Below are positions 1,532 to 13,587 of a stretch of DNA of 14,915 bases, piece by piece. Below the pieces are notes generated by a model. That model worked only from the letters and a program-made list of their open reading frames with translations, was not told the origin of the DNA and made no database searches. The DNA lies in the IMG/VR virus record IMGVR_UViG_2537562091_000005. One strand, written 5' to 3'. Within the stretch, counting starts at the first letter, position 1; every line of letters starts with the position of its first letter. The DNA comes from a virus. Its lineage: Duplodnaviria > Heunggongvirae > Uroviricota > Caudoviricetes. The translations under genes were made by a program, and so were the position numbers.

Positions 1532-1741
1532 TTAATTTGAATACAATGCAATTCTCGAGGACTGAAGTTTCTCGCAATTAAAATTTATCAGTTTTACTTT
1601 CTGCTCTCTGGAAACGCCTGCTTCTTTTTTACCTGAGAGCATTTTTTCGCATTCTGATTTCGTTAGTTTAGATTTTGAATATCTTGTCCAGTTAGTAGGA
1701 GTGCCACCTTCCTTTTCAATAGTGGCGGTAATTTTATACAT
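1532..1741 (-). CDS. ydaC: Small prophage protein (YdaC-like, 69 aa), function unknown
   Basis: Minus-strand ORF; the preferred start (MYKITATIEKEGG...) has GGAGG 5 nt upstream, and the longer 93-aa version starts without an SD. The int-xis-ydaC order matches the Rac left arm as I remember it. The symbol rests on synteny, not verified homology. Confidence 0.5.
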   Translation of the reverse strand: MYKITATIEKEGGTPTNWTRYSKSKLTKSECEKMLSGKKEAGVSREQKVKLINFNCEKLQSSRIALYSN

Positions 1742-1995
1742 GAACACCTCCATTATTATTTCCAGTGGTTCGTTTATTCCATCTTTCGAGTGCTTCTTTT
1801 TCACTTCCACCATAACCGGTTCGGGATTCGCATCCGTTACCCTGGAACGCCGTGCATTACTGGCGGCGCAGGAAGCGTTAAGTACGGCAATTGATGCGCA
1901 TGATGATGCAGTCCAAGCCGTTTACCGGAAAGCGCATTTCAGCGGCGGCGGTTCTCCTAGCGATTCTGTCGTAGTGCATTGATTGAAATTAATCG

Positions 1996-2445: not shown

Positions 2446-2563
2446 AAAAACGGATCAAAAAGCGTTATCTGCATCATCGTCTGCCTGTCATGGGCTGTTA
2501 ATCATTACCGTGATAACGCCACCGCCTACAAAGAGCAGCGCGACAAAAATGCCAGAGAACTGA
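2060..2563 (+). CDS. Phage protein, YdaW-like N-terminal fragment; last ~30 codons are out-of-frame Rz sequence (pseudogene-like fusion)
   Basis: ATG at 2060 with SD AAGGTGA 6 nt upstream. The N-terminal ~130 aa ([46 protein letters not shown]...) look like a real phage protein, possibly DNA-binding or replication-associated. From about 2461 the ORF reads through the Rz N-terminal region in another frame (ending ...[19 protein letters not shown]), which indicates a deletion fusion. Family assignment is uncertain. Confidence 0.5.
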
Positions 2564-2895
2564 AGCTGGCGAACGCGGCAATTACTGACATGCAGATGCG
2601 TCAGCGTGATGTTGCTGCGCTCGATGCAAAATACACGAAGGAGTTAGCTGATGCGAAAGCTGAAAATGATGCTCTGCGTGATGATGTTGCCGCTGGTCGT
2701 CGTCGGTTGCACATCAAAGCAGTCTGTCAGTCAGTGCGTGAAGCCACCACCGCCTCCGGCGTGGATAATGCAGCCTCCCCCCGACTGGCAGACACCGCTG
2801 AACGGGATTATTTCACCCTCCGGGAACGACTGGTAATGATGCAGGCCCAACTTGAAGGTGCTCAGCAATACATAACCGAACAGTGTTTAAAGTAA
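2464..2895 (+). pseudogene. rzpR: Rz-like inner-membrane spanin gene, 5'-truncated (start and first ~12 codons lost)
   Basis: The frame open from 2431 translates to ...[102 protein letters not shown]..., which I recognise as lambda Rz from its TM segment onward. There is no start codon upstream of the TM segment; the first ATG (2590) gives a 101-aa product lacking the membrane anchor. Confidence 0.8.
2651..2836 (+). CDS. rzoR: Rz1-like outer-membrane lipoprotein spanin (o-spanin), 61 aa, nested in the +1 frame of Rz
   Basis: [24 protein letters not shown]... has a signal peptide with lipobox LVVVGC and a proline-rich mature part ([15 protein letters not shown]), typical of Rz1. SD AAGGAG lies 7 nt upstream of the ATG. 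The embedded arrangement inside Rz is the classical spanin architecture. Confidence 0.85.
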
Positions 2896-2981
2896 AATCT
2901 TAACTACAATATGATTCATTTTGATGATTGTTTCATAAGGAACAGTGAAGTAAGATCTAAGAGGAGTTAAATTTTATACAG

Positions 2982-3015
2982 TATAATCATAATATTGCAG
3001 CAAGGTGGTTATAAT
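2982..3015 (+). promoter_or_regulatory. Putative promoter -10 elements upstream of trkG (TATAAT at 2982..2987 and 3010..3015)
   Basis: AT-rich intergenic region with two perfect TATAAT hexamers; no good -35 match. Pattern-based only. Confidence 0.2.
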
Positions 3016-3032
3016 TGAAAGAATATTTAGAT

Positions 3033-4490
3033 ATGAATACATCTCATGTAAGAGTTGTTACTCATATGTGTGGGTTCCTGGTTTGGCTCTATAGTCTTTC
3101 AATGTTGCCACCAATGGTTGTAGCATTGTTTTATAAAGAAAAAAGCCTGTTCGTTTTCTTTATAACTTTCGTTATATTTTTTTGTATTGGTGGCGGAGCG
3201 TGGTATACAACTAAGAAATCTGGCATTCAATTACGTACCCGTGATGGGTTTATTATAATTGTAATGTTTTGGATTTTGTTTTCTGTTATTAGTGCATTCC
3301 CTTTATGGATTGACTCAGAACTTAATTTAACGTTCATTGATGCTCTGTTTGAAGGGGTTTCTGGAATAACAACAACAGGAGCAACTGTAATTGATGATGT
3401 TAGTTCATTACCTCGGGCATATTTGTACTATCGGTCACAGTTAAATTTTATAGGTGGTTTAGGAGTTATTGTTCTGGCGGTTGCTGTATTGCCATTATTG
3501 GGTATTGGTGGTGCAAAGCTTTATCAGTCAGAAATGCCGGGGCCATTTAAGGATGACAAACTCACTCCCCGCCTGGCCGATACGTCACGGACACTGTGGA
3601 TAACTTATTCTTTATTAGGTATTGCTTGTATTGTCTGTTATAGACTTGCAGGAATGCCTTTGTTTGATGCTATTTGTCACGGGATTTCCACAGTTTCGCT
3701 TGGTGGTTTCTCAACTCATAGCGAGAGTATCGGATATTTTAATAACTATTTGGTTGAGCTGGTGGCTGGTTCTTTTTCCCTGCTATCGGCTTTCAACTTC
3801 ACTCTTTGGTATATTGTTATTAGCAGGAAAACGATAAAACCTTTAATCAGAGATATTGAACTTCGTTTCTTTCTGTTAATAGCCTTAGGGGTGATCATTG
3901 TTACCTCTTTCCAGGTCTGGCATATAGGTATGTATGACTTGCATGGAAGTTTTATTCATTCGTTTTTTCTTGCCAGCTCCATGCTCACTGATAATGGTTT
4001 AGCTACGCAGGATTATGCAAGCTGGCCCACGCACACGATAGTGTTTTTGCTGTTGTCAAGTTTCTTTGGGGGATGTATAGGTTCAACTTGTGGTGGAATT
4101 AAGTCACTTCGATTTCTTATACTTTTCAAACAAAGCAAACACGAGATAAATCAGCTTTCTCATCCCAGAGCGTTGTTGAGTGTAAATGTAGGAGGGAAGA
4201 TAGTTACAGATCGTGTAATGAGGTCTGTATGGAGTTTCTTTTTTCTTTATACTCTCTTCACGGTGTTTTTTATACTGGTGTTAAATGGTATGGGATATGA
4301 TTTTCTTACATCATTTGCAACAGTGGCTGCATGTATTAATAATATGGGATTAGGTTTTGGGGCTACTGCATCGTCATTCGGAGTGCTTAATGACATTGCA
4401 AAATATTTAATGTGCATAGCTATGATTCTTGGTCGCCTTGAAATTTATCCTGTTATTATATTGTTTTCAGGTTTTTTTTGGCGCTCCTAA
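3033..4490 (+). CDS. trkG: Trk-system potassium uptake membrane protein TrkG (prophage-encoded moron), 485 aa
   Basis: Polytopic membrane protein (MNTSHVRVVTHMCGFLVWLYSLSMLPPMVVALFYKEK...) with repeated glycine-rich selectivity-filter-like motifs typical of TrkH/TrkG; recognised as Rac TrkG. Markedly AT-rich relative to neighbours. Start ambiguity: ATG 3033 has no SD, whereas in-frame TTG 3015 is preceded by AAGGTGG at a 6-nt spacing. Confidence 0.9.
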   Translation: MNTSHVRVVTHMCGFLVWLYSLSMLPPMVVALFYKEKSLFVFFITFVIFFCIGGGAWYTTKKSGIQLRTRDGFIIIVMFWILFSVISAFPLWIDSELNLTFIDALFEGVSGITTTGATVIDDVSSLPRAYLYYRSQLNFIGGLGVIVLAVAVLPLLGIGGAKLYQSEMPGPFKDDKLTPRLADTSRTLWITYSLLGIACIVCYRLAGMPLFDAICHGISTVSLGGFSTHSESIGYFNNYLVELVAGSFSLLSAFNFTLWYIVISRKTIKPLIRDIELRFFLLIALGVIIVTSFQVWHIGMYDLHGSFIHSFFLASSMLTDNGLATQDYASWPTHTIVFLLLSSFFGGCIGSTCGGIKSLRFLILFKQSKHEINQLSHPRALLSVNVGGKIVTDRVMRSVWSFFFLYTLFTVFFILVLNGMGYDFLTSFATVAACINNMGLGFGATASSFGVLNDIAKYLMCIAMILGRLEIYPVIILFSGFFWRS

Positions 4491-4576
4491 TATATGGCTG
4501 ATTTATAATTGTGAGTTTAATATTATGTTGACTCACTCATTGATCCAATACCTAACTTTACCAGCAACACCTCCGC

Positions 4577-4610
4577 CCCCAGTAGCACTGGCTGCTGGGG
4601 TGCGTTTTAT
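4577..4610 (+). terminator. Possible intrinsic terminator downstream of trkG
   Basis: CCCCAG (4577..4582) pairs with CTGGGG (4595..4600) around a 12-nt loop, followed by TGCGTTTTATT. The long loop makes it a weak candidate. Confidence 0.3.
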
Positions 4611-4627
4611 TCATAAAGCAAGGATGT

Positions 4628-5419
4628 ATGAGCGAGAAATTAAAGATAGTCTATCGCCCATTACAAGAATTGTCACCGTATGCGCACAACGCCAGGACGC
4701 ACAGCCCTGAGCAGGTGGCACAACTGGTAGAAAGTATTAAGCAATTCGGCTGGACTAATCCGGTGCTGATTGACGAAAAGGGCGAAATTATTGCGGGTCA
4801 CGGTCGTGTTATGGCGGCTGAAATGCTCAAAATGGATTCTGTTCCGGTCATTGTTCTGTCTGGCCTGACGGATGAGCAGAAAAAGGCGTACCGCCTGGCA
4901 GATAATCGCCTGCCGATGAATGCTGGCTGGGATGAAGATCTGTTGCGGATGGAGCTGTCGGACCTAATCAATGCTGATTTTGATGTCTCCCTGACAGGCT
5001 TCATCCCGACAGAAATTGATGAACTGTTGACGGATGTTTTGCCCGGTACAGGAAATGAGGAGGAGCCGTATACGACGAAAATTGATACGCCTGTTTATGA
5101 GCCGTCGGGCGGTAAACCGGATATCAGTGAACTGTACGACGATACGAAAACGCAGGAGCTGATCAGCCGGATACGTTCGGCTTCCCTTGAGCCTGATATT
5201 GAGAAATTCCTCCTGTGTGCGGCAGAACGTCACACGGTGTTTAATTTCAGCAGAATTGCGGACTATTACGCTCACGCCCCCGCTGAAATTCAGTGTTTTT
5301 TCGAGGAGTCGGCGCTGGTGATCATTGATTATCAGCAGGCTATTGAAAATGGATTTGTCCGGATGACGCAGCGCATGGTGGAGATCATGCATGGTGGTGA
5401 GGAGGAGGAATATGCGTGA
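4628..5419 (+). CDS. ParB-like nuclease N-terminal domain protein (ParB/Srx superfamily), 263 aa
   Basis: N-terminal region IVYRPLQELSPYAHNARTHSPEQVAQLVESIKQFGWTNPVLIDEKGEIIAGHGRVMAA fits the ParB N-terminal fold (conserved NAR..S and GHGR motifs), followed by an acidic C-terminal extension. AGGA lies 3 nt upstream of the ATG. No methyltransferase motifs are visible. Confidence 0.7.
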   Translation: MSEKLKIVYRPLQELSPYAHNARTHSPEQVAQLVESIKQFGWTNPVLIDEKGEIIAGHGRVMAAEMLKMDSVPVIVLSGLTDEQKKAYRLADNRLPMNAGWDEDLLRMELSDLINADFDVSLTGFIPTEIDELLTDVLPGTGNEEEPYTTKIDTPVYEPSGGKPDISELYDDTKTQELISRIRSASLEPDIEKFLLCAAERHTVFNFSRIADYYAHAPAEIQCFFEESALVIIDYQQAIENGFVRMTQRMVEIMHGGEEEEYA

Positions 5420-5498
5420 TGATTTTTGCGCCTTTATTCTGACTCACGGGCGACCGGACAAAGTTCTGACTTACCGAACGTTGCGTCGTGCTGGCTAG
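5412..5498 (+). pseudogene. 28-codon gene stub (MRDDFCAFILTHGRPDKVLTYRTLRRAG) with strong SD, likely remnant 5' end of a deleted or frameshifted gene
   Basis: ATG at 5412 is preceded by GGAGGAGGAA and overlaps the ParB-like stop (5417..5419), a coupled arrangement. It stops after 28 codons at TAG 5496..5498. The long capsid ORF is in a different frame. Confidence 0.3.
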
Positions 5499-6544
5499 CA
5501 AAAAACGCAAAAGCTGACGCCGCAGCAAAAGATCAGACGGTAACCGCGCCAGTTGCGCCTGAGGCGAAAACCGAAGATATCGTACCGGGGCCGTCAGCTC
5601 CGAATACCGGTGATCAAAATATTGGCACTGTTGATGTGAAAATTACTAAATCCAAAATGGCACCGGTTAAATGGAATGGTGAAGAACAACTGGCTCTTGG
5701 CCCTTCAGGGACTTACAACACCATTCTGGCTGATCAGTTTAAGCAGGCTTTTCGCGCCCTTGCAAACGAGGTTGAGGCTGATCTTGGTGCGTTGTATTTC
5801 GGTGCTTCCCGCGCCGTGGGAACCGCAGGGACAACGCCGTTTGGTGTTAAAGATGATCTTTCTGATGCTGCTCTGGCTCGTCAGGTTCTGGAGGATAACG
5901 GCGCACCGACAACCGATCTGCAGATGGTGCTTGGCTCCAGTGCCATTGCTAATTTGCGCGGAAAACAGTCTGTACTGTTTAAAGTGAATGAATCCGGCAC
6001 TGAACAGCTACTGCGTGAGGGCGTGTTGGGGCGTCTGGAGGGATTCAATATTCACAGTTCGGCAGGTGTAAAACGAGCGCCAAAGGTTGCTGCAACTGGT
6101 TATCTCGTGAATGGCGAGAAAAAAGAAGGCGATGTTCTTATTTCCATTGATACTGGTTCGGGGAGTATTTCTGCAGGTCAGATTGTTACGTTCGCTGGCG
6201 ATCCGAATCAGTATGTTGTGGCAGCAGCGACCAGCAATCTGATTACTCTTGCAGCGCCCGGACTGCGTCAGGATCTGGCCGATGATACTGCAATCACAGT
6301 TGTTGGCTCCTTTACTGCAAATATGGCGTTTGATCGCAACGCGTTTCTGCTGGCATCCCGTACTCCGGCAATGCCGGAAGGTGGCGATAATGCTGATGAT
6401 GTAATGAATGTTACGGACCCGATTTCAGGGATTACGTTCCAGATTGCACTGTATCGTCAGTATCGCCAGGTGCGCTATGAAGTTGGACTGGCATGGGGTG
6501 TTTCATCAGTGAAGCCGGCACATGGTTGTCTGATTCTTGGTTAA
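5426..6544 (+). CDS. Phage major capsid protein, P22-coat-like family; 5' end appears damaged (no ATG or SD in frame until codon 78)
   Basis: 372-codon frame with segments resembling P22 coat protein from memory (FRALANEVEADLG vs P22 ARKLANNVELKVA; GQIVTFAGD insertion-domain-like region; C-terminal GLAWGVSS). The frame opens at 5423 after a TGA; the only early starts are TTG 5426 (17 nt from the SD) and unsupported GTG 5636 and ATG 5657. Probably a pseudogene or frameshifted gene. Confidence 0.5.
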   Translation: MRLYSDSRATGQSSDLPNVASCWLAKNAKADAAAKDQTVTAPVAPEAKTEDIVPGPSAPNTGDQNIGTVDVKITKSKMAPVKWNGEEQLALGPSGTYNTILADQFKQAFRALANEVEADLGALYFGASRAVGTAGTTPFGVKDDLSDAALARQVLEDNGAPTTDLQMVLGSSAIANLRGKQSVLFKVNESGTEQLLREGVLGRLEGFNIHSSAGVKRAPKVAATGYLVNGEKKEGDVLISIDTGSGSISAGQIVTFAGDPNQYVVAAATSNLITLAAPGLRQDLADDTAITVVGSFTANMAFDRNAFLLASRTPAMPEGGDNADDVMNVTDPISGITFQIALYRQYRQVRYEVGLAWGVSSVKPAHGCLILG

Positions 6545-6554
6545 ACATTCAAAC

Positions 6555-6576
6555 GGGGCTTCGGCCCCATTTTTAA
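6555..6576 (+). terminator. Intrinsic terminator immediately downstream of the capsid gene
   Basis: GGGGC (6555..6559), TTCG tetraloop, GCCCC (6564..6568), then ATTTTTAA, beginning 11 nt after the capsid stop. Confidence 0.6.
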
Positions 6577-6586
6577 TGGAGGGCAT

Positions 6587-6763
6587 ATGGCCGGATTAAC
6601 TAAAGAGCAAAGAGCACAGCGTGAAGCCGCACAAAAAACGCAAATTGAGTTAGTGGTTATGGTGACCGATTATCAGATGTTTCCCGGCGCACCAACTATC
6701 GCTAATGTTCATCCTGATGAAGTTGACAACTGGAAGGCTATGGGCTGGAAAACTCAGGAGTAA
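6587..6763 (+). CDS. Small hypothetical phage protein, 58 aa (not in ORF track)
   Basis: ATG 6587 preceded by GGAGG (4-nt spacer); translation MAGLTKEQRAQREAAQKTQIELVVMVTDYQMFPGAPTIANVHPDEVDNWKAMGWKTQE; stop TAA 6761..6763, 3 nt before the next gene start. It fills the capsid-connector gap with gene-like spacing. Confidence 0.45.
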   Translation: MAGLTKEQRAQREAAQKTQIELVVMVTDYQMFPGAPTIANVHPDEVDNWKAMGWKTQE

Positions 6764-6766
6764 CAC

Positions 6767-7162
6767 ATGATCACTTACGTGACCTGTGATGACGTTGATA
6801 ATGCGTTTGGGAACGCCTGGACGAGTGAGAACGCTAAAAATAAAGCTGTTTTAATGGCTAATGCCTGGCTTAATGGCTTCAACCTGAAAATTAACCCATC
6901 CCGTATTCCGGAAGAGGTAAAACTTGCGGGAGCATATGCAGCCAGAATTGCCTCATTCGGTAAGTTGTTTCAGCAGAAAAATGATTCTGGCGTTGTTATC
7001 AGTAAAGCCGTGTCGGCTGACGGGGTCAGTGTATCGAAATCATTTGCTGAGTTGCCATCAAACAGCACTGTATTGCTTGAACCCGATTTACAGCTTGCGA
7101 TAGCACTGCTGAAACCGTACGGACTTAGTCGCTCACAAGTCAGGGTTGTGAGGGGGGGATAA
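6767..7162 (+). CDS. Putative head-tail connector / head completion protein (gp6-like), 131 aa
   Basis: Compact ORF following the capsid gene; assignment rests on position in the head-completion cassette and size, with no confident motif. Confidence 0.45.
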   Translation: MITYVTCDDVDNAFGNAWTSENAKNKAVLMANAWLNGFNLKINPSRIPEEVKLAGAYAARIASFGKLFQQKNDSGVVISKAVSADGVSVSKSFAELPSNSTVLLEPDLQLAIALLKPYGLSRSQVRVVRGG

Positions 7163-7545
7163 TGGGGCTTCGTGAAGAGATTCAGTCAGAGGTTGCCGCT
7201 GCTTTTGATGAGGATTTAGCGGACGCCGTGAGTGATTTTTCTGGTTCTTACGTTACGCACCGGCACTGGGATCCTGTGACGGAAACTGGCGGCGAATCCA
7301 CCGCAATCTATACCGGGCGAGGCGTGTTGACACGTTATAAGCTGGGCAGAATTGATGGGATTAATATTTTGCATGGTGACCTTAAATTAACCGCTCTGGT
7401 ATGCGAGGTTACGGATAAACCAGCTGTCGACCATATTATTGAGATTTATGATCCTGTATCAAGGCAGTTACAACGATACGAGGTAATTACAGCAAGTGTA
7501 GATCCTTCCGCATCAGTTTACTCTATCCAGTTAAGGAGAGCGTAA
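7162..7545 (+). CDS. Putative head-tail joining / head closure protein, 127 aa
   Basis: Start overlaps the upstream stop (TAATG) with a G-rich SD (AGGGGGGGA). Function assigned from position and size only. Confidence 0.45.
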   Translation: MGLREEIQSEVAAAFDEDLADAVSDFSGSYVTHRHWDPVTETGGESTAIYTGRGVLTRYKLGRIDGINILHGDLKLTALVCEVTDKPAVDHIIEIYDPVSRQLQRYEVITASVDPSASVYSIQLRRA

Positions 7546-7926
7546 ATGGCAAAGGCATGGGATATAGAACCGTCAATATTTGCCGGGATGATTGAGGAAG
7601 ATGTAGGGCTGAAGATTCGCTACATCGCTATTCAGATTCTTACTGCTATTGATATTGCTGCTCCGGTTGATACCGGACGTTTCAGAAATAACAACCTGGT
7701 GTCGTTACAGCATCCCGATTTTGGTATATCTGATAACGTGGATCCGAACGGTACGATTGCTGTTCAGCGTGGGATCGGGGTTATTTCGAAAGCTGCAAAT
7801 TACGGAGTTATTTATATCCAGAATAACCTTCCTTATGCAGAGACTCTTGAAAACGGTCATTCACAACAAGCGCCAACTGGCGTGTATGCCAACGCTTTTC
7901 ATGGTGTTTTACAGGCTTACAAATGA
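7546..7926 (+). CDS. HK97 gp10-like neck / tail-completion protein, 126 aa
   Basis: Contains PVDTGRFRNN and LPYAETLENG, resembling the gp10-family signature (DTG..R ... YA..vE.G) from memory. Starts immediately after the upstream stop. Confidence 0.6.
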   Translation: MAKAWDIEPSIFAGMIEEDVGLKIRYIAIQILTAIDIAAPVDTGRFRNNNLVSLQHPDFGISDNVDPNGTIAVQRGIGVISKAANYGVIYIQNNLPYAETLENGHSQQAPTGVYANAFHGVLQAYK

Positions 7927-8360
7927 CGTTTACTGAAATCAGAAATACGGTTATTTCCAGAATGACGGCACAGACGATTATTGATGGAAAAGACGTATTG
8001 TATCCGAACGCGCCAACGTTCGATCCTTCCGGTAAGTTAATCTGGGCGCGGTTAAGTAATATTCCCGGGCAGGCTGGAGTTAATGAAATTGGCGCGGGGC
8101 CGATTGTTTATCGCACGGGGATAATCATTATTCAGTTATTTGTCCCCGCAGGTTCTGGTTCAAAACTCATTACTGAGACAGCCGATAAATTGCGGGAACT
8201 GTTTGAGTTTCAGGATGACGATCGTCTCAGTTACCAGGCTGTTTCCTCAACCAGCCAGACTACTGCGGACAGAATAACAGCACATAATTTACGCATAATT
8301 ACCTCTCGCTTTTCTGCAATAAAAAAGGCGCCATTTCTGGCGCCCGTATCTGGGTTATAA
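7923..8360 (+). CDS. Putative tail terminator / neck protein, 145 aa; 3' end runs through an opposite-strand terminator (possibly chimeric C-terminus)
   Basis: ATGA overlap with the upstream gene. The last ~15 codons (…SAIKKAPFLAPVSGL) are encoded by the hairpin that serves as terminator of the convergent J fragment, so the C-terminus may derive from a rearrangement joint. Confidence 0.45.
   Translation: MTFTEIRNTVISRMTAQTIIDGKDVLYPNAPTFDPSGKLIWARLSNIPGQAGVNEIGAGPIVYRTGIIIIQLFVPAGSGSKLITETADKLRELFEFQDDDRLSYQAVSSTSQTTADRITAHNLRIITSRFSAIKKAPFLAPVSGL
8320..8344 (-). terminator. Intrinsic terminator for the minus-strand J fragment
   Basis: On the minus strand: GGCGCCA, GAAA loop, TGGCGCC, then TTTTTTATT, beginning about 20 nt past the J stop (stem at plus 8327..8333 and 8338..8344; A-run 8321..8326). 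Confidence 0.6.
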
Positions 8361-8363
8361 AAT

Positions 8364-10925
8364 TCAGCTAATCGTGATGCCTGCAGTGGCTTTCTTCATC
8401 ACAACAACCAGCAAATCGCTGATACTTGCTGTGGGATACCAACCATTTACCCACCATGCTGATACAGAAAACTCCAGTGTCATTACGCCACTGCCTGCTG
8501 GCATATCAATAACACCCGTGTAAATCAGAGTATTATCCAGAGCCGTTCGGTTATAAATTTCAGCCCCGTTTTTCTTCACTATCAGGCGGCATGACGAATA
8601 AGTATCGCTATTCTCCCGCTCATGTCTGGCACCGCTGAAAGCCACCGCTGGAATAACAATTTGCCGGTCAAACGGCTGATCGTCATAAACCCTGACGGTA
8701 ATGGTCCCTGATGGCCACCGCTCCGGTGCACGGGAGTCCCGGGGGAAAGCTTTGCCCACTGTTTTAACGAGATCGCCTTCAATCTGGTTCGCGGACAGTT
8801 TTCCCAGAACCCGACAGTTCTCGTTAATCGTGACGTTGTTGAGCGTCCCGGAGTTCGCATTCACGCTACCGCTGATATCGGCATTTTTCGCCGTCAGCCG
8901 CCCGTCCGGTGTCAGGGAAAATGCCGGAGGATTACCGCCGCTGGTAATGGTCGGAGCCGTCAGGCGTTTCAGGAACACGTCGTTCATGAATATCTGATCG
9001 CCCTGACCAACAAACATTGGTCTTGTGTTGCCATTAGACGGATCAATAAACGCGATACGGTTAGCGGCAACCAGGAACTGGCTCAGTTTGCCTTCCTCCG
9101 TATCCTCCATGCTGAGGCCAAGCCCCGCGACATAATGCCTGCCGTCTTCGGTCTGCTCAATTTTGACGCCCCACATGGCATTCCATTTATCGTTGGCGTC
9201 TTTCCACTCTTTCGAAAACTCCTCCAGTTTGCTGGCGTTATCCTCCGTCAGCTCGACTTTTTCCAGCAGCTCATTGCCGAGATGGGATTCGGTTATCTGG
9301 CCTTTGAAAAAATCCAGGTAACCTTCCGCATCATCGCTCGCCCGACCAACAGCCTCCACGAATGCCGATTTGCCGACGGTGTTCACACTGCGGATATAAA
9401 AGTAATAATCACGGCCCGGTTTGATATTGGTACTGGCGGCTATCCAGTACAGCGCCGTGCCAAGATAGCGGGCTGTGGTTTCAACCTGTCTGATATCAGC
9501 AACCCGCTTTTCCGAGAACCAGAACTCAAACTGTACCGTCGGATCATAAACGGCAAGATACGGCGTGGCGGTTATCTGAAAATAGCCCGGCGTCAGCTCA
9601 ATCCGCGACGGTGCTGCCGGTGCGGCAATCCGGAACGATACCGATGCCGGATCGCCCTGCTGTCCCCACGCATTTGCCGCCCGGACTGTCAGCCTGTAGT
9701 TCCCCAGCGCCAGCTGCCTGAAGCGGTATGTGTTTTCCGTCGTCCTGGCCGTGCTGACCAGCCGCTCACTGCCGTCGTCCGCTGCCACGGTCAGGCGAAG
9801 CATAAAGCTCACCCCCTTCACCACCTTCGGCGTGTCCCAGCGCGCCAGCACCTGATATTCCCCGCTGTCTGCGGTGACTTCGGCAGTCAGGTGCTGCACT
9901 GCTGGCGGCGTGACACCATTCACCGTGCCGCTCTGGTCGCCGTCAAAGTGCGCCCCGTTATCCACGATGGCTTCTTTTTCCGGTACATGCTGCACGGCGG
10001 TGATGGCATACGTGCCGTCGTCGTTCTCACGGATACTCACGCAGCGGAACAGGCGCTGGCGCAGCGTCGGCAGCTTCAGCCCCCACACGCTGTATCCGGC
10101 AACGCCGTCAGGAACACGACTCACTTTTACCTTCACGCCGTCGGTGACGGACTGGACCTCCACGCTGACCGGATTGCCACTTCCGTCAACCAGGCTTATC
10201 AGCGTGGTACCGGAGGATGGCAGCGTGATTTCACGGTCGAGCGTCAGCGTCCGGGTCTGGCTGTTCACCGCCAGCACGCGCCCGCCGATGCTGATACCCG
10301 CATAGTCATCATCGCAGATTTCAATGACATCCCCCGGTACATGGCGAAGCCCTTCTGCGCCCACGCTGAAGTCCACGGTCTGCGTTTCCAGCAGCTCCGT
10401 TTTAATCAGCCACAGCCCGGCGCGGTGTGCCTGCCCCCGACTGGTACAGCCAAAGGCATCCATCTTCGTGACGTTACGGCCGTAACGGGCAATGGCCTGC
10501 GTATCCTCCACGAGCTCTGTCGCCGTCTCCCAGCCGTTATCCGGGTCAATCCAGTTCACCTCAACGGCATTATGGCGGTCCTTCAGGGCGCTGAAGCTGT
10601 AGCGGAACGGCGCGCCATCATCCGGCATCACCACATTACTGCGGTTATAGGTCCACACCTTATCCGACGGTCGGTCCTGCACGAACGTCAGCGTCTGCCC
10701 GTTCCATACCGGCATACAGCGCATCGCCGAGCAGAAATCACTGAGCACATCCCACGCCTTGCGCTGTGTGGTCAGCCAGGCATTACAGGTAATGCGCGGC
10801 TCCGTGCCGCCAAAGCCGTCCGGCACTGACTGGTCGCAGTACTGGCCGATGACATACAGCGCCCATTTGTCCACATCCGCCGCACCAAGACGTTTCCCCA
10901 TGCCGTAGCGCGGGTGGGTCAGCAT
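8364..10925 (-). pseudogene. Lambda J-like host-specificity / tail-tip protein, N-terminally truncated and inverted relative to lom and stf
   Basis: From [50 protein letters not shown]... to the C-terminus the translation closely matches lambda gpJ as I recall it, including FN3-like repeats and the C-terminal receptor-binding region. About 280 N-terminal residues of a ~1130-aa J are absent. The ORF-track extension to 11030 (GTG start, 35 non-J codons) is antisense to lom and has no SD. Confidence 0.8.
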
Positions 10926-11171
10926 ATGGCTTACAGCCGAGTGTCGACCTTCTCCGGGGATTATCTCCGCGTAACTGACAACAAGGGGAAAACGCACGAT
11001 GTGCTGACCGGAAGTGATGACGGTCGCCACAGCAATACGTCTCTGGCGTGGGGGGCTGGCGTGCAGTTTAACCCGACCGAATCCGTGGCCATTGATATTG
11101 CTTATGAAGGCTCCGGCAGTGGTGACTGGCGCACTGACGGTTTCATCGTGGGTGTCGGTTATAAATTCTGA
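10926..11171 (+). pseudogene. lom (Ail/Lom family outer-membrane protein) 3' fragment, last ~81 codons only
   Basis: C-terminus ...[43 protein letters not shown] matches the Lom/Ail beta-barrel C-terminus with terminal Phe. The signal peptide and N-terminal two-thirds are missing. Confidence 0.8.
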
Positions 11172-11235: not shown

Positions 11236-13587
11236 ATGGCAGCAGTAAAAATCTCAGGTGTGCTGAAAGATGGTGCGGGAAAACCAATACAGAACTGCAC
11301 TATTCAACTGAAGGCAAAGCGTAACAGCACCACGGTACTGGTGAACACGGTGGCCTCTGAAAATCCGGATGAAGCCGGGCGTTACAGCATGGATGTTGAG
11401 TATGGCCAGTACAGTGTCATCCTGCTGGTTGAAGGTTTTCCGCCTTCACATGCCGGGACCATTACCGTCTATGAAGGTTCCAGACCAGGTACGCTGAATG
11501 ATTTTCTTGGTGCCATGACGGAGGATGATGCCCGTCCGGAGGCACTGCGCCGTTTTGAACTGATGGTGGAAGAAGCAGCACGCAACGCTGAAGCCGCCTC
11601 TCAGAGCGCAGCGGCGGCAAAGAAATCCGAAACTGCAGCGGCATCATCGAAGAACGCGGCGAAAACCTCAGAAACGAATGCAGCTAATAGTGCACAGGCG
11701 GCAGCGACCTCACAGACTGCATCAGCAAACTCCGCGACAGCAGCCAAAAAATCAGAAACCAACGCGAAAAACAGCGAGACAGCCGCAAAGACGAGCGAAA
11801 CCAACGCAAAGTCCAGCCAGACGGCAGCGAAAACCAGCGAAACGAATGCCAAAGCCAGTGAAACTGCGGCAAAAAACAGCCAGGTTGCGGCAGCCGGTTC
11901 TGCGACTTCAGCAGCTGGATCAGCAACTGCTGCGGCTAACAGCCAGAAAGCTGCGAAGACGAGTGAAACTAACGCAAAGTCCAGCCAGACGGCAGCGAAG
12001 ACCAGCGAAACGAATGCCAAAGCCAGCGAAACTGCGGCGAAAAACAGCCAGGATGCAGCAGCCCAAAGCGAGAGTGCCGCAGCTGGTTCTGCAAGTGCGG
12101 CGGCTTCTTCTGCCACTGCATCAGCCAACAGTCAAAAAGCAGCAAAAACCAGTGAAACCAACACAAAGGCGAGCGAGACTGCGGCGACTAACTCGGCGAA
12201 AGCATCCGCTGCAAGCCAGATGGCTGCAAAAGCAAGTGAAGACGCAGCCAGAGAGTATGCAAGCCAGGCAGCAGAGCCGTATAAATATGTCTTACAGCCA
12301 CTGCCTGATGTGTGGATACCGTTTAATGACTCGATGGATATGATTACAGGATTTGGCCCGGGATATAAAAAAATAACAGTGCGCGATGATGTGGTCACTA
12401 TACCATCCGACAAAATTGTCCCGTTTTCCCGCGCGAGTTCCGCGACCTATATCAATAAGTCCGGCGCTCTTACCATTGCAGAAATTAATGAGCCACGTTT
12501 TGAAAAAGAAGGGCTGTTAATTGAAGGGCAGAGAACAAATTACTTCACAAACTCAAACGCTCCGGAATTGTGGAATAAAAATCCAGGCCTGAAGATAAGC
12601 GAGACAAAAACCGATTCCAGGGGTTTTAAATATGCAACGTTTACCCCAGAAAAATATTTAGATAGTTCTGGCTCATATGGAATTATATCAGGGGCAGCAG
12701 CAAATAAGATAGCGGTAGTCAAAAATGATGCAGTTACAATATCCTTTAGAGCAAAAGGGGATAATGTAAGATTTGCGGCTAGATTTGATAAAGGGGATTC
12801 GCCAGTTGCTGTAGCTGCCATTTTTATTGATAGCGCCACACTAGATACATTCACGTCTGGAGCAGATGCGTCTAATATTGCTGTGAAAAATGTTGTTCGT
12901 GACGGTGAGTGGGTTGCTGTAGAGGCTGTTTATAAAGTAACAGACGACTCTACATATATTAACGGCGCCATTCTGATGTCAAACAAACTGGGTGCTAATT
13001 TTGATAAGACTAGTTTTATGGATGTAACCACCCCTCAAATAGAGCTAGGTTCTTGCTTATCATCATTTATTGTCACTCCAGGTGTTCCTGCGACAAGGGC
13101 GAGTGATATGGTTATTTTTTCAACCAGAAATAACATAAGTTCTGTCCCTTTAAGCTGTCTTGTTGAAATACATAAAAATTGGGACTCTACGCCAAATCAG
13201 GCCCCACGAATTTTAACCACTATTGGCGTGGCGACTAATGATGAACAACTGGTATTGGCTTTCAGGACGCCTACAAGTCCGGATGTAGAACCTTTACCTT
13301 ATGTTCAGTTTGGAGTGAGATCTGCATATCTTAGTCCATCTGTGAAGGCCGGGCGCAAAATGATTGCTGGTTTTGTCTGTAATAGCTCGACTGAATTTCG
13401 TTGCTGTTGTAATGGTTACCTGTCACCTGTTCAGACTTCGTCATGGAAGAATACCGGAGCTGCACATGAAATACGTATTGGGGGAACTTCTGCTGGAGGA
13501 GAACGTCACTTGTTTGGTCACGTTCGTAACCTGAGAATATGGCATAAAGAATTAACTGATGCGCAAATGGGGGAGAGTATTAAATGA
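11236..13587 (+). CDS. Side tail fibre protein, mosaic: lambda-Stf-like N-terminus, Ala/Ser/Thr tandem-repeat shaft, divergent C-terminal region with possible lectin-like (LamG/concanavalin-type) end
   Basis: ATG 11236 with GGAG 5 nt upstream (ORF track starts at in-frame GTG 11230). The N-terminal ~115 aa (MAAVKISGVLKDGAGKPIQNCTIQLKAKRNSTTVLVNTV...) match the lambda Stf N-terminus from memory. Residues ~120-330 are KTSETNAK-type repeats. The C-terminal ~450 aa are low-GC and end ...GERHLFGHVRNLRIWHKELTDAQMGESIK, reminiscent of LamG-like domain termini; no His-rich GxHxH motifs. Confidence 0.8.
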   Translation: MAAVKISGVLKDGAGKPIQNCTIQLKAKRNSTTVLVNTVASENPDEAGRYSMDVEYGQYSVILLVEGFPPSHAGTITVYEGSRPGTLNDFLGAMTEDDARPEALRRFELMVEEAARNAEAASQSAAAAKKSETAAASSKNAAKTSETNAANSAQAAATSQTASANSATAAKKSETNAKNSETAAKTSETNAKSSQTAAKTSETNAKASETAAKNSQVAAAGSATSAAGSATAAANSQKAAKTSETNAKSSQTAAKTSETNAKASETAAKNSQDAAAQSESAAAGSASAAASSATASANSQKAAKTSETNTKASETAATNSAKASAASQMAAKASEDAAREYASQAAEPYKYVLQPLPDVWIPFNDSMDMITGFGPGYKKITVRDDVVTIPSDKIVPFSRASSATYINKSGALTIAEINEPRFEKEGLLIEGQRTNYFTNSNAPELWNKNPGLKISETKTDSRGFKYATFTPEKYLDSSGSYGIISGAAANKIAVVKNDAVTISFRAKGDNVRFAARFDKGDSPVAVAAIFIDSATLDTFTSGADASNIAVKNVVRDGEWVAVEAVYKVTDDSTYINGAILMSNKLGANFDKTSFMDVTTPQIELGSCLSSFIVTPGVPATRASDMVIFSTRNNISSVPLSCLVEIHKNWDSTPNQAPRILTTIGVATNDEQLVLAFRTPTSPDVEPLPYVQFGVRSAYLSPSVKAGRKMIAGFVCNSSTEFRCCCNGYLSPVQTSSWKNTGAAHEIRIGGTSAGGERHLFGHVRNLRIWHKELTDAQMGESIK
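11590..12240 (+). repeat. In-frame tandem repeats inside stf (11-aa sub-repeats; about 100-nt near-identical copies at a 168-nt period)
   Basis: The peptide AAKTSETNAKSSQTAAKTSETNAKASETAAKNSQ occurs twice, 56 codons apart (about 11786..11885 and 11954..12053). The two copies differ by six synonymous transitions. A third partial copy follows (KAAKTSETNTKASETAA). Confidence 0.75.

Follow-up and report, generated by a model that had tools for sequence, protein, structure and literature searches.

Incomplete prophages preferentially lose terminase and portal genes and keep their integrase and tail-fibre genes (PMC7744054), and the decay of "grounded" prophages, Rac included, has been reviewed (PMC6379469). 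Intact Rac-like prophages have a gene order of trkG, a ParB-like gene, a TAGT glycosyltransferase gene (310 aa), a 69-aa ORF, terS and terL, followed after the terminases by genes for a portal (DUF4055), a minor head protein, a DUF6651 protein and a P22-coat capsid (379 aa). Relatives that are intact in this respect are present in E. coli F5505-C1, EC100 and FDAARGOS_497, Salmonella phage SPF_0923 and Escherichia phage vB_EcoS-606R9; HK639 is a more distant intact relative with a major head protein that is 75% identical. The window, by which we mean the whole 14,915-nucleotide stretch analyzed (IMG/VR record IMGVR_UViG_2537562091_000005), is 100% identical to GL872249.1 of E. coli H489 (GCA_000191015.1). 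It shares gene order and 99–100% nucleotide identity with the intact relatives on both sides of a joint at 5496/5497 but, unlike the window, the relatives have a full 6,979-bp segment at this position, and their capsid gene (379 aa) has a Shine-Dalgarno (SD) sequence and ATG of its own. As reference loci we used the intact prophages of EC100 (L004) and F5505-C1 (L005), together with the window's own contig (L006).

The Rac-type prophage in the window is strongly reduced and occupies the ttcA site, with dbpA, ttcA and the integrase gene immediately upstream in L006. Its left end (1–1843) has intR, xisR, rcbA and a truncated ralR, and is 99.7–99.9% identical to EC100 and K-12 Rac; trkG (3015–4490; TrkH, PF02386) is followed by a strong terminator-like hairpin on its 3′ side and by the ParB-like gene, and the order is colinear with K-12 up to ynaK. 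The position next to ttcA, the intR-xisR-rcbA-ralR left end and the succession of trkG and a ynaK-like gene together place it among Rac-type prophages. There are two further junctions to the left of trkG. At the first (1830–1843, a 14-nt overlap) recT, recE, racC, kilR, sieB, racR, ydaS and part of ydaT have been removed, and the ralR toxin gene (1734–1843, minus strand) has lost its first ~28 codons; the RalA antitoxin sRNA that it overlaps is intact (1557–1735, plus strand; Rfam RF02694, 225 bits), so that the antitoxin is kept and the toxin gone. The second (2464–2467, a 4-nt overlap) joins a hypothetical gene in the ydaU position to an Rz-like lysis gene, creating a 167-aa fusion ORF (2060–2563); relative to F5505-C1, the replication genes, hokD, rusA, and the antiterminator, holin and lysozyme genes are removed.

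Immediately to the right of the ParB-like gene there are two overlapping plus-strand reading frames. An SD run, GAGGAGGAGGAA (5399–5410, plus strand), sits within the final codons of the ParB-like gene and is followed by an ATG at 5412 that opens a stub of 28 codons (5412–5498, plus strand) with the translation MRDDFCAFILTHGRPDKVLTYRTLRRAG and a TAG stop at 5496–5498. The capsid-like frame, in the −1 register with respect to the stub, stays open from 5423 through to 6544; the mechanically called ORF within it (5426–6544, plus strand, 372 codons) has a TTG start 15 nt beyond the end of the SD run and is the GenBank hypothetical protein ERGG_01122 (EGB58003.1). Apart from TTG 5426, the only in-frame starts before codon 78 are GTG 5636 and ATG 5657, and a purine-rich SD was sought upstream of these two and found at neither. 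A preliminary description of this DNA had reported both the path from SD to ATG 5412 to a stop at 5498 and a capsid-like frame with no SD and no ATG until 5657, and on re-reading the window sequence we obtained the same result for each.

The gene to the left of the stub is intact (4628–5419, plus strand) and codes for a 263-aa protein with a ParB_N domain (PF02195, 28.9 bits with a cut-off of 26.3). The gene corresponds to K-12 ynaK at full length, and its EC100 equivalent is annotated as ParB/Srx (L004 26718–27512). Its TGA overlaps the ATG of the stub (ATGCGTGA), and the same overlap is present in the intact prophage. There, the gene directly 3′ of the ParB-like gene encodes the 310-aa protein, which begins MRDDFCAFILTHGRPDKVLTYRTLRRAGY, and the stub corresponds to its codons 1–28 plus a TAG made by the joint; the SD run is in the same place, with 100% identity, 5′ of the 310-aa gene in F5505-C1 (L005). 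The intact 310-aa protein is a TET-associated glycosyltransferase (TAGT; PF20691, 121.6 bits, residues 8–222), and in intact prophages its gene lies ~7 kb 5′ of that for the capsid. As the stub represents residues 1–28 of this glycosyltransferase, the SD and ATG 5412 were never those of the capsid gene; the preliminary description had by implication treated them as a misplaced capsid start, and they are instead the native start of the TAGT gene. Only residues 1–28 are left in the window, which does not qualify for TAGT membership and is predicted to encode no functional TAGT protein. In intact Rac-like prophages the ParB_N and TAGT genes form a translationally overlapping pair just 5′ of the terminase genes (window 4628–5498; L004 26718–28437). 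We note that the pair recalls cassettes for the hypermodification of phage DNA, where ParB-like proteins are paired with 5-methylpyrimidine dioxygenases (PMC13229309); a dioxygenase is not annotated beside the pair.

The two frames meet at a deletion joint at 5496/5497, which reads GCTGGCTA/GCAAAAAAC and has a 2-nt TA microhomology common to both parents. In a three-way alignment the left parent reads …GCTGGCTA/TACCGGG and the right parent …CCTGCGGTA/GCAAAAAAC, with the window changing from one parent to the other at the common TA (5496–5497). Window 2464–5497 aligns with L004 24554–27590 in EC100 and window 5496–8250 with L004 34568–37322, and in F5505-C1 both blocks are 100.000% identical, over 3,034 and 2,755 bp. 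The blocks lie 6,979 bp apart in both of these intact prophages, and it is this segment that is missing from the window. The deletion extends from glycosyltransferase codon 29 to capsid codon 31 and, following the EC100 annotation, includes the rest of the glycosyltransferase gene, the 69-aa ORF, the small and large terminase genes, the DUF4055 portal, minor head protein and DUF6651 (scaffold-position) genes, and the 5′ end of the capsid gene. Because 6,979 is 3n+1, the glycosyltransferase and capsid remnants are out of frame with each other, and the stub's TAG is composed of the TA and the G of capsid codon 32, with codon 29 of the parent changing from TAT to TAG. A megablast search of phage records gives matches that begin only at window 5489/5496, within "coat protein" genes of Rac-like phages that begin about 90–180 nt before the similarity to the window sets in. 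The locus thus has the composition of a deletion-derived pseudogene, with flanks colinear with a single intact relative, the middle absent, and both of the flanking genes truncated.

These comparisons leave little doubt that what looked like a broken capsid start in E. coli H489 is the scar left by a deletion, and that the Rac-type prophage carrying it is decaying. The 6,979 bp would have been excised in a single event, either illegitimate recombination or replication slippage, at the 2-nt TA microhomology. Should the region be transcribed, translation from the strong SD would yield just a 28-aa peptide ending at the joint TAG, and the capsid remnant (codons 32–379) would be left in the −1 frame without start signals of its own. 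Judged against the intact relatives, the two-frame arrangement is accounted for base by base, and chance is not at issue. The preliminary description had proposed a 5′ lesion between 5412 and 5500 caused by either a single-nucleotide indel or a deletion joint; the deletion joint stands, at 5496/5497, and the indel does not, with 6,979 bp missing. The joint also creates an NheI site (GCTAGC, 5494–5499) that resembles a cloning scar. We considered an engineered deletion and rejected it, since the site derives from both parents at the TA microhomology and the joint is also present in gut-metagenome and unrelated read sets.

The capsid gene remnant (5498–6544, plus strand) consists of codons 32–379 and the stop. 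The intact gene is 379 codons long (L004 34477–35616), with an AAGGAA SD and its own ATG, and the joint is 93 nt into it; the SD, the ATG and codons 1–31 are all gone from the window, which does not have a complete coding sequence. Both the remnant and its parent score above the gathering cut-off of 24 for the P22 coat protein gp5 family (PF11651 P22_CoatProtein), at 47.8 bits for window 5498–6544 and 48 bits for the intact 379-aa parent, a level that indicates distant kinship, and the match covers only profile positions 98–235 of 423. The first 24 codons of the 372-codon ORF are the 5′ end of the glycosyltransferase gene read out of frame, and the residues they encode match no homologue in our capsid alignment. 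That N-terminal alignment contains five homologues, those of HK639, Microcystis phage Me-ZS1, Pasteurella phage Pm86 and Salicola phage CGphi29 among them, and has a conserved motif, …LIPxLYxALxxVSREQxGFIPAV, that is replaced by unrelated out-of-frame residues in the window ORF. The capsid N-terminus of the homologues differs from the stub and is absent from the window, which answers the comparison proposed in the preliminary description. The 31 lost codons are conserved in homologues down to 43–50% identity. In a 90%-identity cluster of 1,308 members, a length of 379 aa is shared by the representative and by 12 of the 13 further members listed, and tblastn alignments with homologues down to 34–50% identity begin at residue 1–4. 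An intact but shorter gene with homologues starting near 5636 or 5657, which had also been contemplated, does not agree with these full-length 379-aa proteins aligned from residue 1–4. A PDB sequence search with the intact capsid found no solved structure, returning only a match at chance level (E = 0.37). Presumably, by analogy with P22/HK97-fold capsids, the 31 missing N-terminal residues would form the N-arm.

As the remnant is without start signals and the conserved N-terminus, and the terminase, portal and scaffold-position partner are also gone, we infer that no capsid is assembled and that no functional capsid protein is made from this locus. The earlier view that the capsid is not made as a normal product is therefore likely to be right, given the missing SD, ATG and conserved N-terminus. 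We suggest that the remnant has not been domesticated and is a pseudogene of recent origin. Its ORF is uninterrupted owing to the recent date of the deletion; compared with an intact prophage, 5.8 kb contain 0 substitutions, a count at which sequence evolution cannot tell a neutral remnant from one with a retained function. For annotation, the 372-aa "hypothetical protein" EGB58003.1 is best regarded as a pseudogene remnant whose first 24 residues come out of frame from another gene, and the stub as a truncated glycosyltransferase gene and not a capsid leader.

Downstream of the capsid stop there is a terminator-like hairpin, GGGGCTTCGGCCCC, followed by a T run (6555–6578, plus strand), which is retained parental sequence, and then head-completion/neck genes (58, 131, 127 and 126 aa) and a tail-terminator gene (6587–8250, plus strand) that are colinear with the intact prophage. 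This colinearity ends at a rearrangement junction at 8248–8250, in the last gene of the block (PF13554). The final ~65 nt of that tail-terminator gene (7923–8360) are replaced at the 8250 junction, and the ORF is 145 aa, compared to 130 aa in the intact prophages. The C-terminal part of the tail-tip gene J is inverted (8248–10927), giving an 888-aa minus-strand ORF with the tail-terminator gene on one side and lom′ on the other; beyond a junction at 10925–10927, and 3′ of the inverted J fragment, come lom′ and then the tail-fibre genes. One of the tail-fibre genes encodes a 785-aa protein with a tail-fibre N-terminal domain and has two 126-nt repeats (11770–11895 and 11938–12063, ~91% identical and 168 nt apart) that are an internal repeat of the fibre shaft. 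Another carrier of the joint, L007 (10823–13072), shows that the whole tail module (F5505-C1 reverse-complement 31780–42946) was first inverted with 3-nt junction overlaps, and that different internal pieces were lost afterwards in different carriers. L007 and a further carrier, L010, have differing tail rearrangements and a common breakpoint in the tail-tube gene (F5505-C1 reverse-complement 32293), which could be either a recombination-prone repeat or an assembly effect in the Logan contig.

A different reading of the remnant, which we regard as very improbable, is that expression from TTG 5426, GTG 5636 or ATG 5657 gives a capsid protein with a changed N-terminus that either keeps a role or has gained one, for instance in interfering with the assembly of related superinfecting phages or as a recombination reservoir. 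The 348 parental codons are uninterrupted, products of 372 aa and 295 aa have been annotated by gene callers, and the neck genes downstream are intact too. However, no usable SD precedes any of the three candidate starts, a consensus scan (weak evidence) gave no plus-strand promoter-like site within 4400–6700, the hairpin after trkG resembles a terminator, and the antiterminator and lysis region is also deleted relative to F5505-C1. The open frame needs no explanation beyond the youth of the deletion (0 substitutions in 5.8 kb), and the tail region downstream has decayed differently among the carriers of the joint. There is only a slim chance that a capsid subunit without its N-arm, made at a low level, is kept as useful by poisoning the heads of superinfecting Rac/HK639-like phages, or that the remnant is kept as a recombination reservoir; if the remnant and neck genes were useful in this way, then the recurrent terminase-to-scaffold deletions (H489, CP024661 and K-12) would represent host-level selection and not neutral decay.

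Returning to the deletion scar, the joint is not confined to H489. An exact-sequence look-up of the 372-aa ORF found 13 contigs, and we recovered six loci (the H489 NCBI assembly, two ENA metagenome assemblies and three Logan runs), all six of which have an identical 60-nt joint sequence. The carriers differ in their flanks, with one retaining sieB to hok on the left and another the tail-tube gene on the right; the same joint in differing architectures indicates a heritable allele that is older than some of the other rearrangements, and its identity in five assemblies besides H489 shows that it is not an assembly error. Searches of 5,426 complete E. coli genomes, 1,036 of which carry the capsid segment, and of 50,697 phage records did not find the joint. 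Exact 32-nt scans over the joint found none in GTDB species-representative genomes, IMG/VR or JGI metagenomes, because the carriers are not in those collections; the exact-protein look-up did find carriers. The joint allele is rare. Its absence from complete genomes and phage records, and the empty exact scans of the genome, viral and JGI metagenome collections, are what would be expected if the joint were an assembly chimera, or if the window were ancestral with an insertion in the intact relatives. This is very hard to sustain with the joint present in five further assemblies from different data and assemblers, and with a missing segment that contains the terminase, portal and head-assembly genes and completes two truncated genes; the change is therefore a deletion.

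We also reject a programmed −1 ribosomal frameshift that would take ribosomes out of the stub frame and produce a fusion protein with the capsid frame, although the capsid frame is indeed −1 relative to the stub and open from 5423, and there is a run of five T residues at 5423–5427. No X XXY YYZ heptamer is present between 5412 and 5498, and the stub still has 100% identity to the corresponding part of the intact glycosyltransferase gene, which means that a signal has not evolved there. The juxtaposition of the frames arises from the deletion alone and does not occur in any of the 5,426 complete E. coli genomes, homologous capsid genes each consist of one ORF of about 379 aa, and a frameshifted product would have junk residues in place of the conserved N-terminus. 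The preliminary description had likewise ranked a programmed frameshift as unlikely, in accord with the lack of a slippery site and of conservation of the two-frame layout. A single-nucleotide indel or sequencing error in an otherwise complete capsid gene, with the stub as the true capsid N-terminus, would explain why the stub and capsid frames are one base apart, but we give it almost no credence, as the stub encodes the first residues of a glycosyltransferase, an unrelated protein, the conserved N-terminus of capsid homologues is different and missing from the window, the missing length is 6,979 bp and not 1, and the same joint is found in other assemblies.

The deletion scar in H489 has two parallels. 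The first is K-12 Rac, which like H489 has the ttcA site, the intR-xisR-rcbA left end and trkG, and a packaging/head module deleted starting just past trkG. The K-12 deletion is a separate one, extending from the ParB-like gene (ynaK′, L004 26971) to ydaY (38535), about 11.6 kb (L012 15630–15631); in H489 the left breakpoint lies 619 bp farther 3′ and the right one at capsid codon 31, and whereas the capsid gene is wholly gone from K-12 Rac, H489 retains a capsid remnant and the neck genes. The second is the Rac-like prophage of E. coli CP024661.1 (GCA_002764155.1), which like H489 has a 5′-truncated capsid gene of the P22-coat family and a ~6 kb terminase-to-DUF6651 deletion. Its breakpoints are different, joining terS codon ~33 to capsid codon ~101 with an 8-nt overlap (L004 28725 to 34778; L017 5958–6060), and unlike in H489 its glycosyltransferase and 69-aa genes are intact. 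The 295-aa capsid remnant of CP024661.1 is labelled in RefSeq as a normal capsid-family protein (WP_349654518.1). From these sequence comparisons the packaging/head module has been lost through at least three independent deletions in different E. coli lineages, with the integrase, trkG and tail-fibre genes persisting, in line with the losses described for incomplete prophages (PMC7744054). The H489 joint represents a further snapshot of the stepwise decay of Rac; it fits published models of prophage domestication and raises no new question, and although the feature is real, it is ordinary prophage decay.
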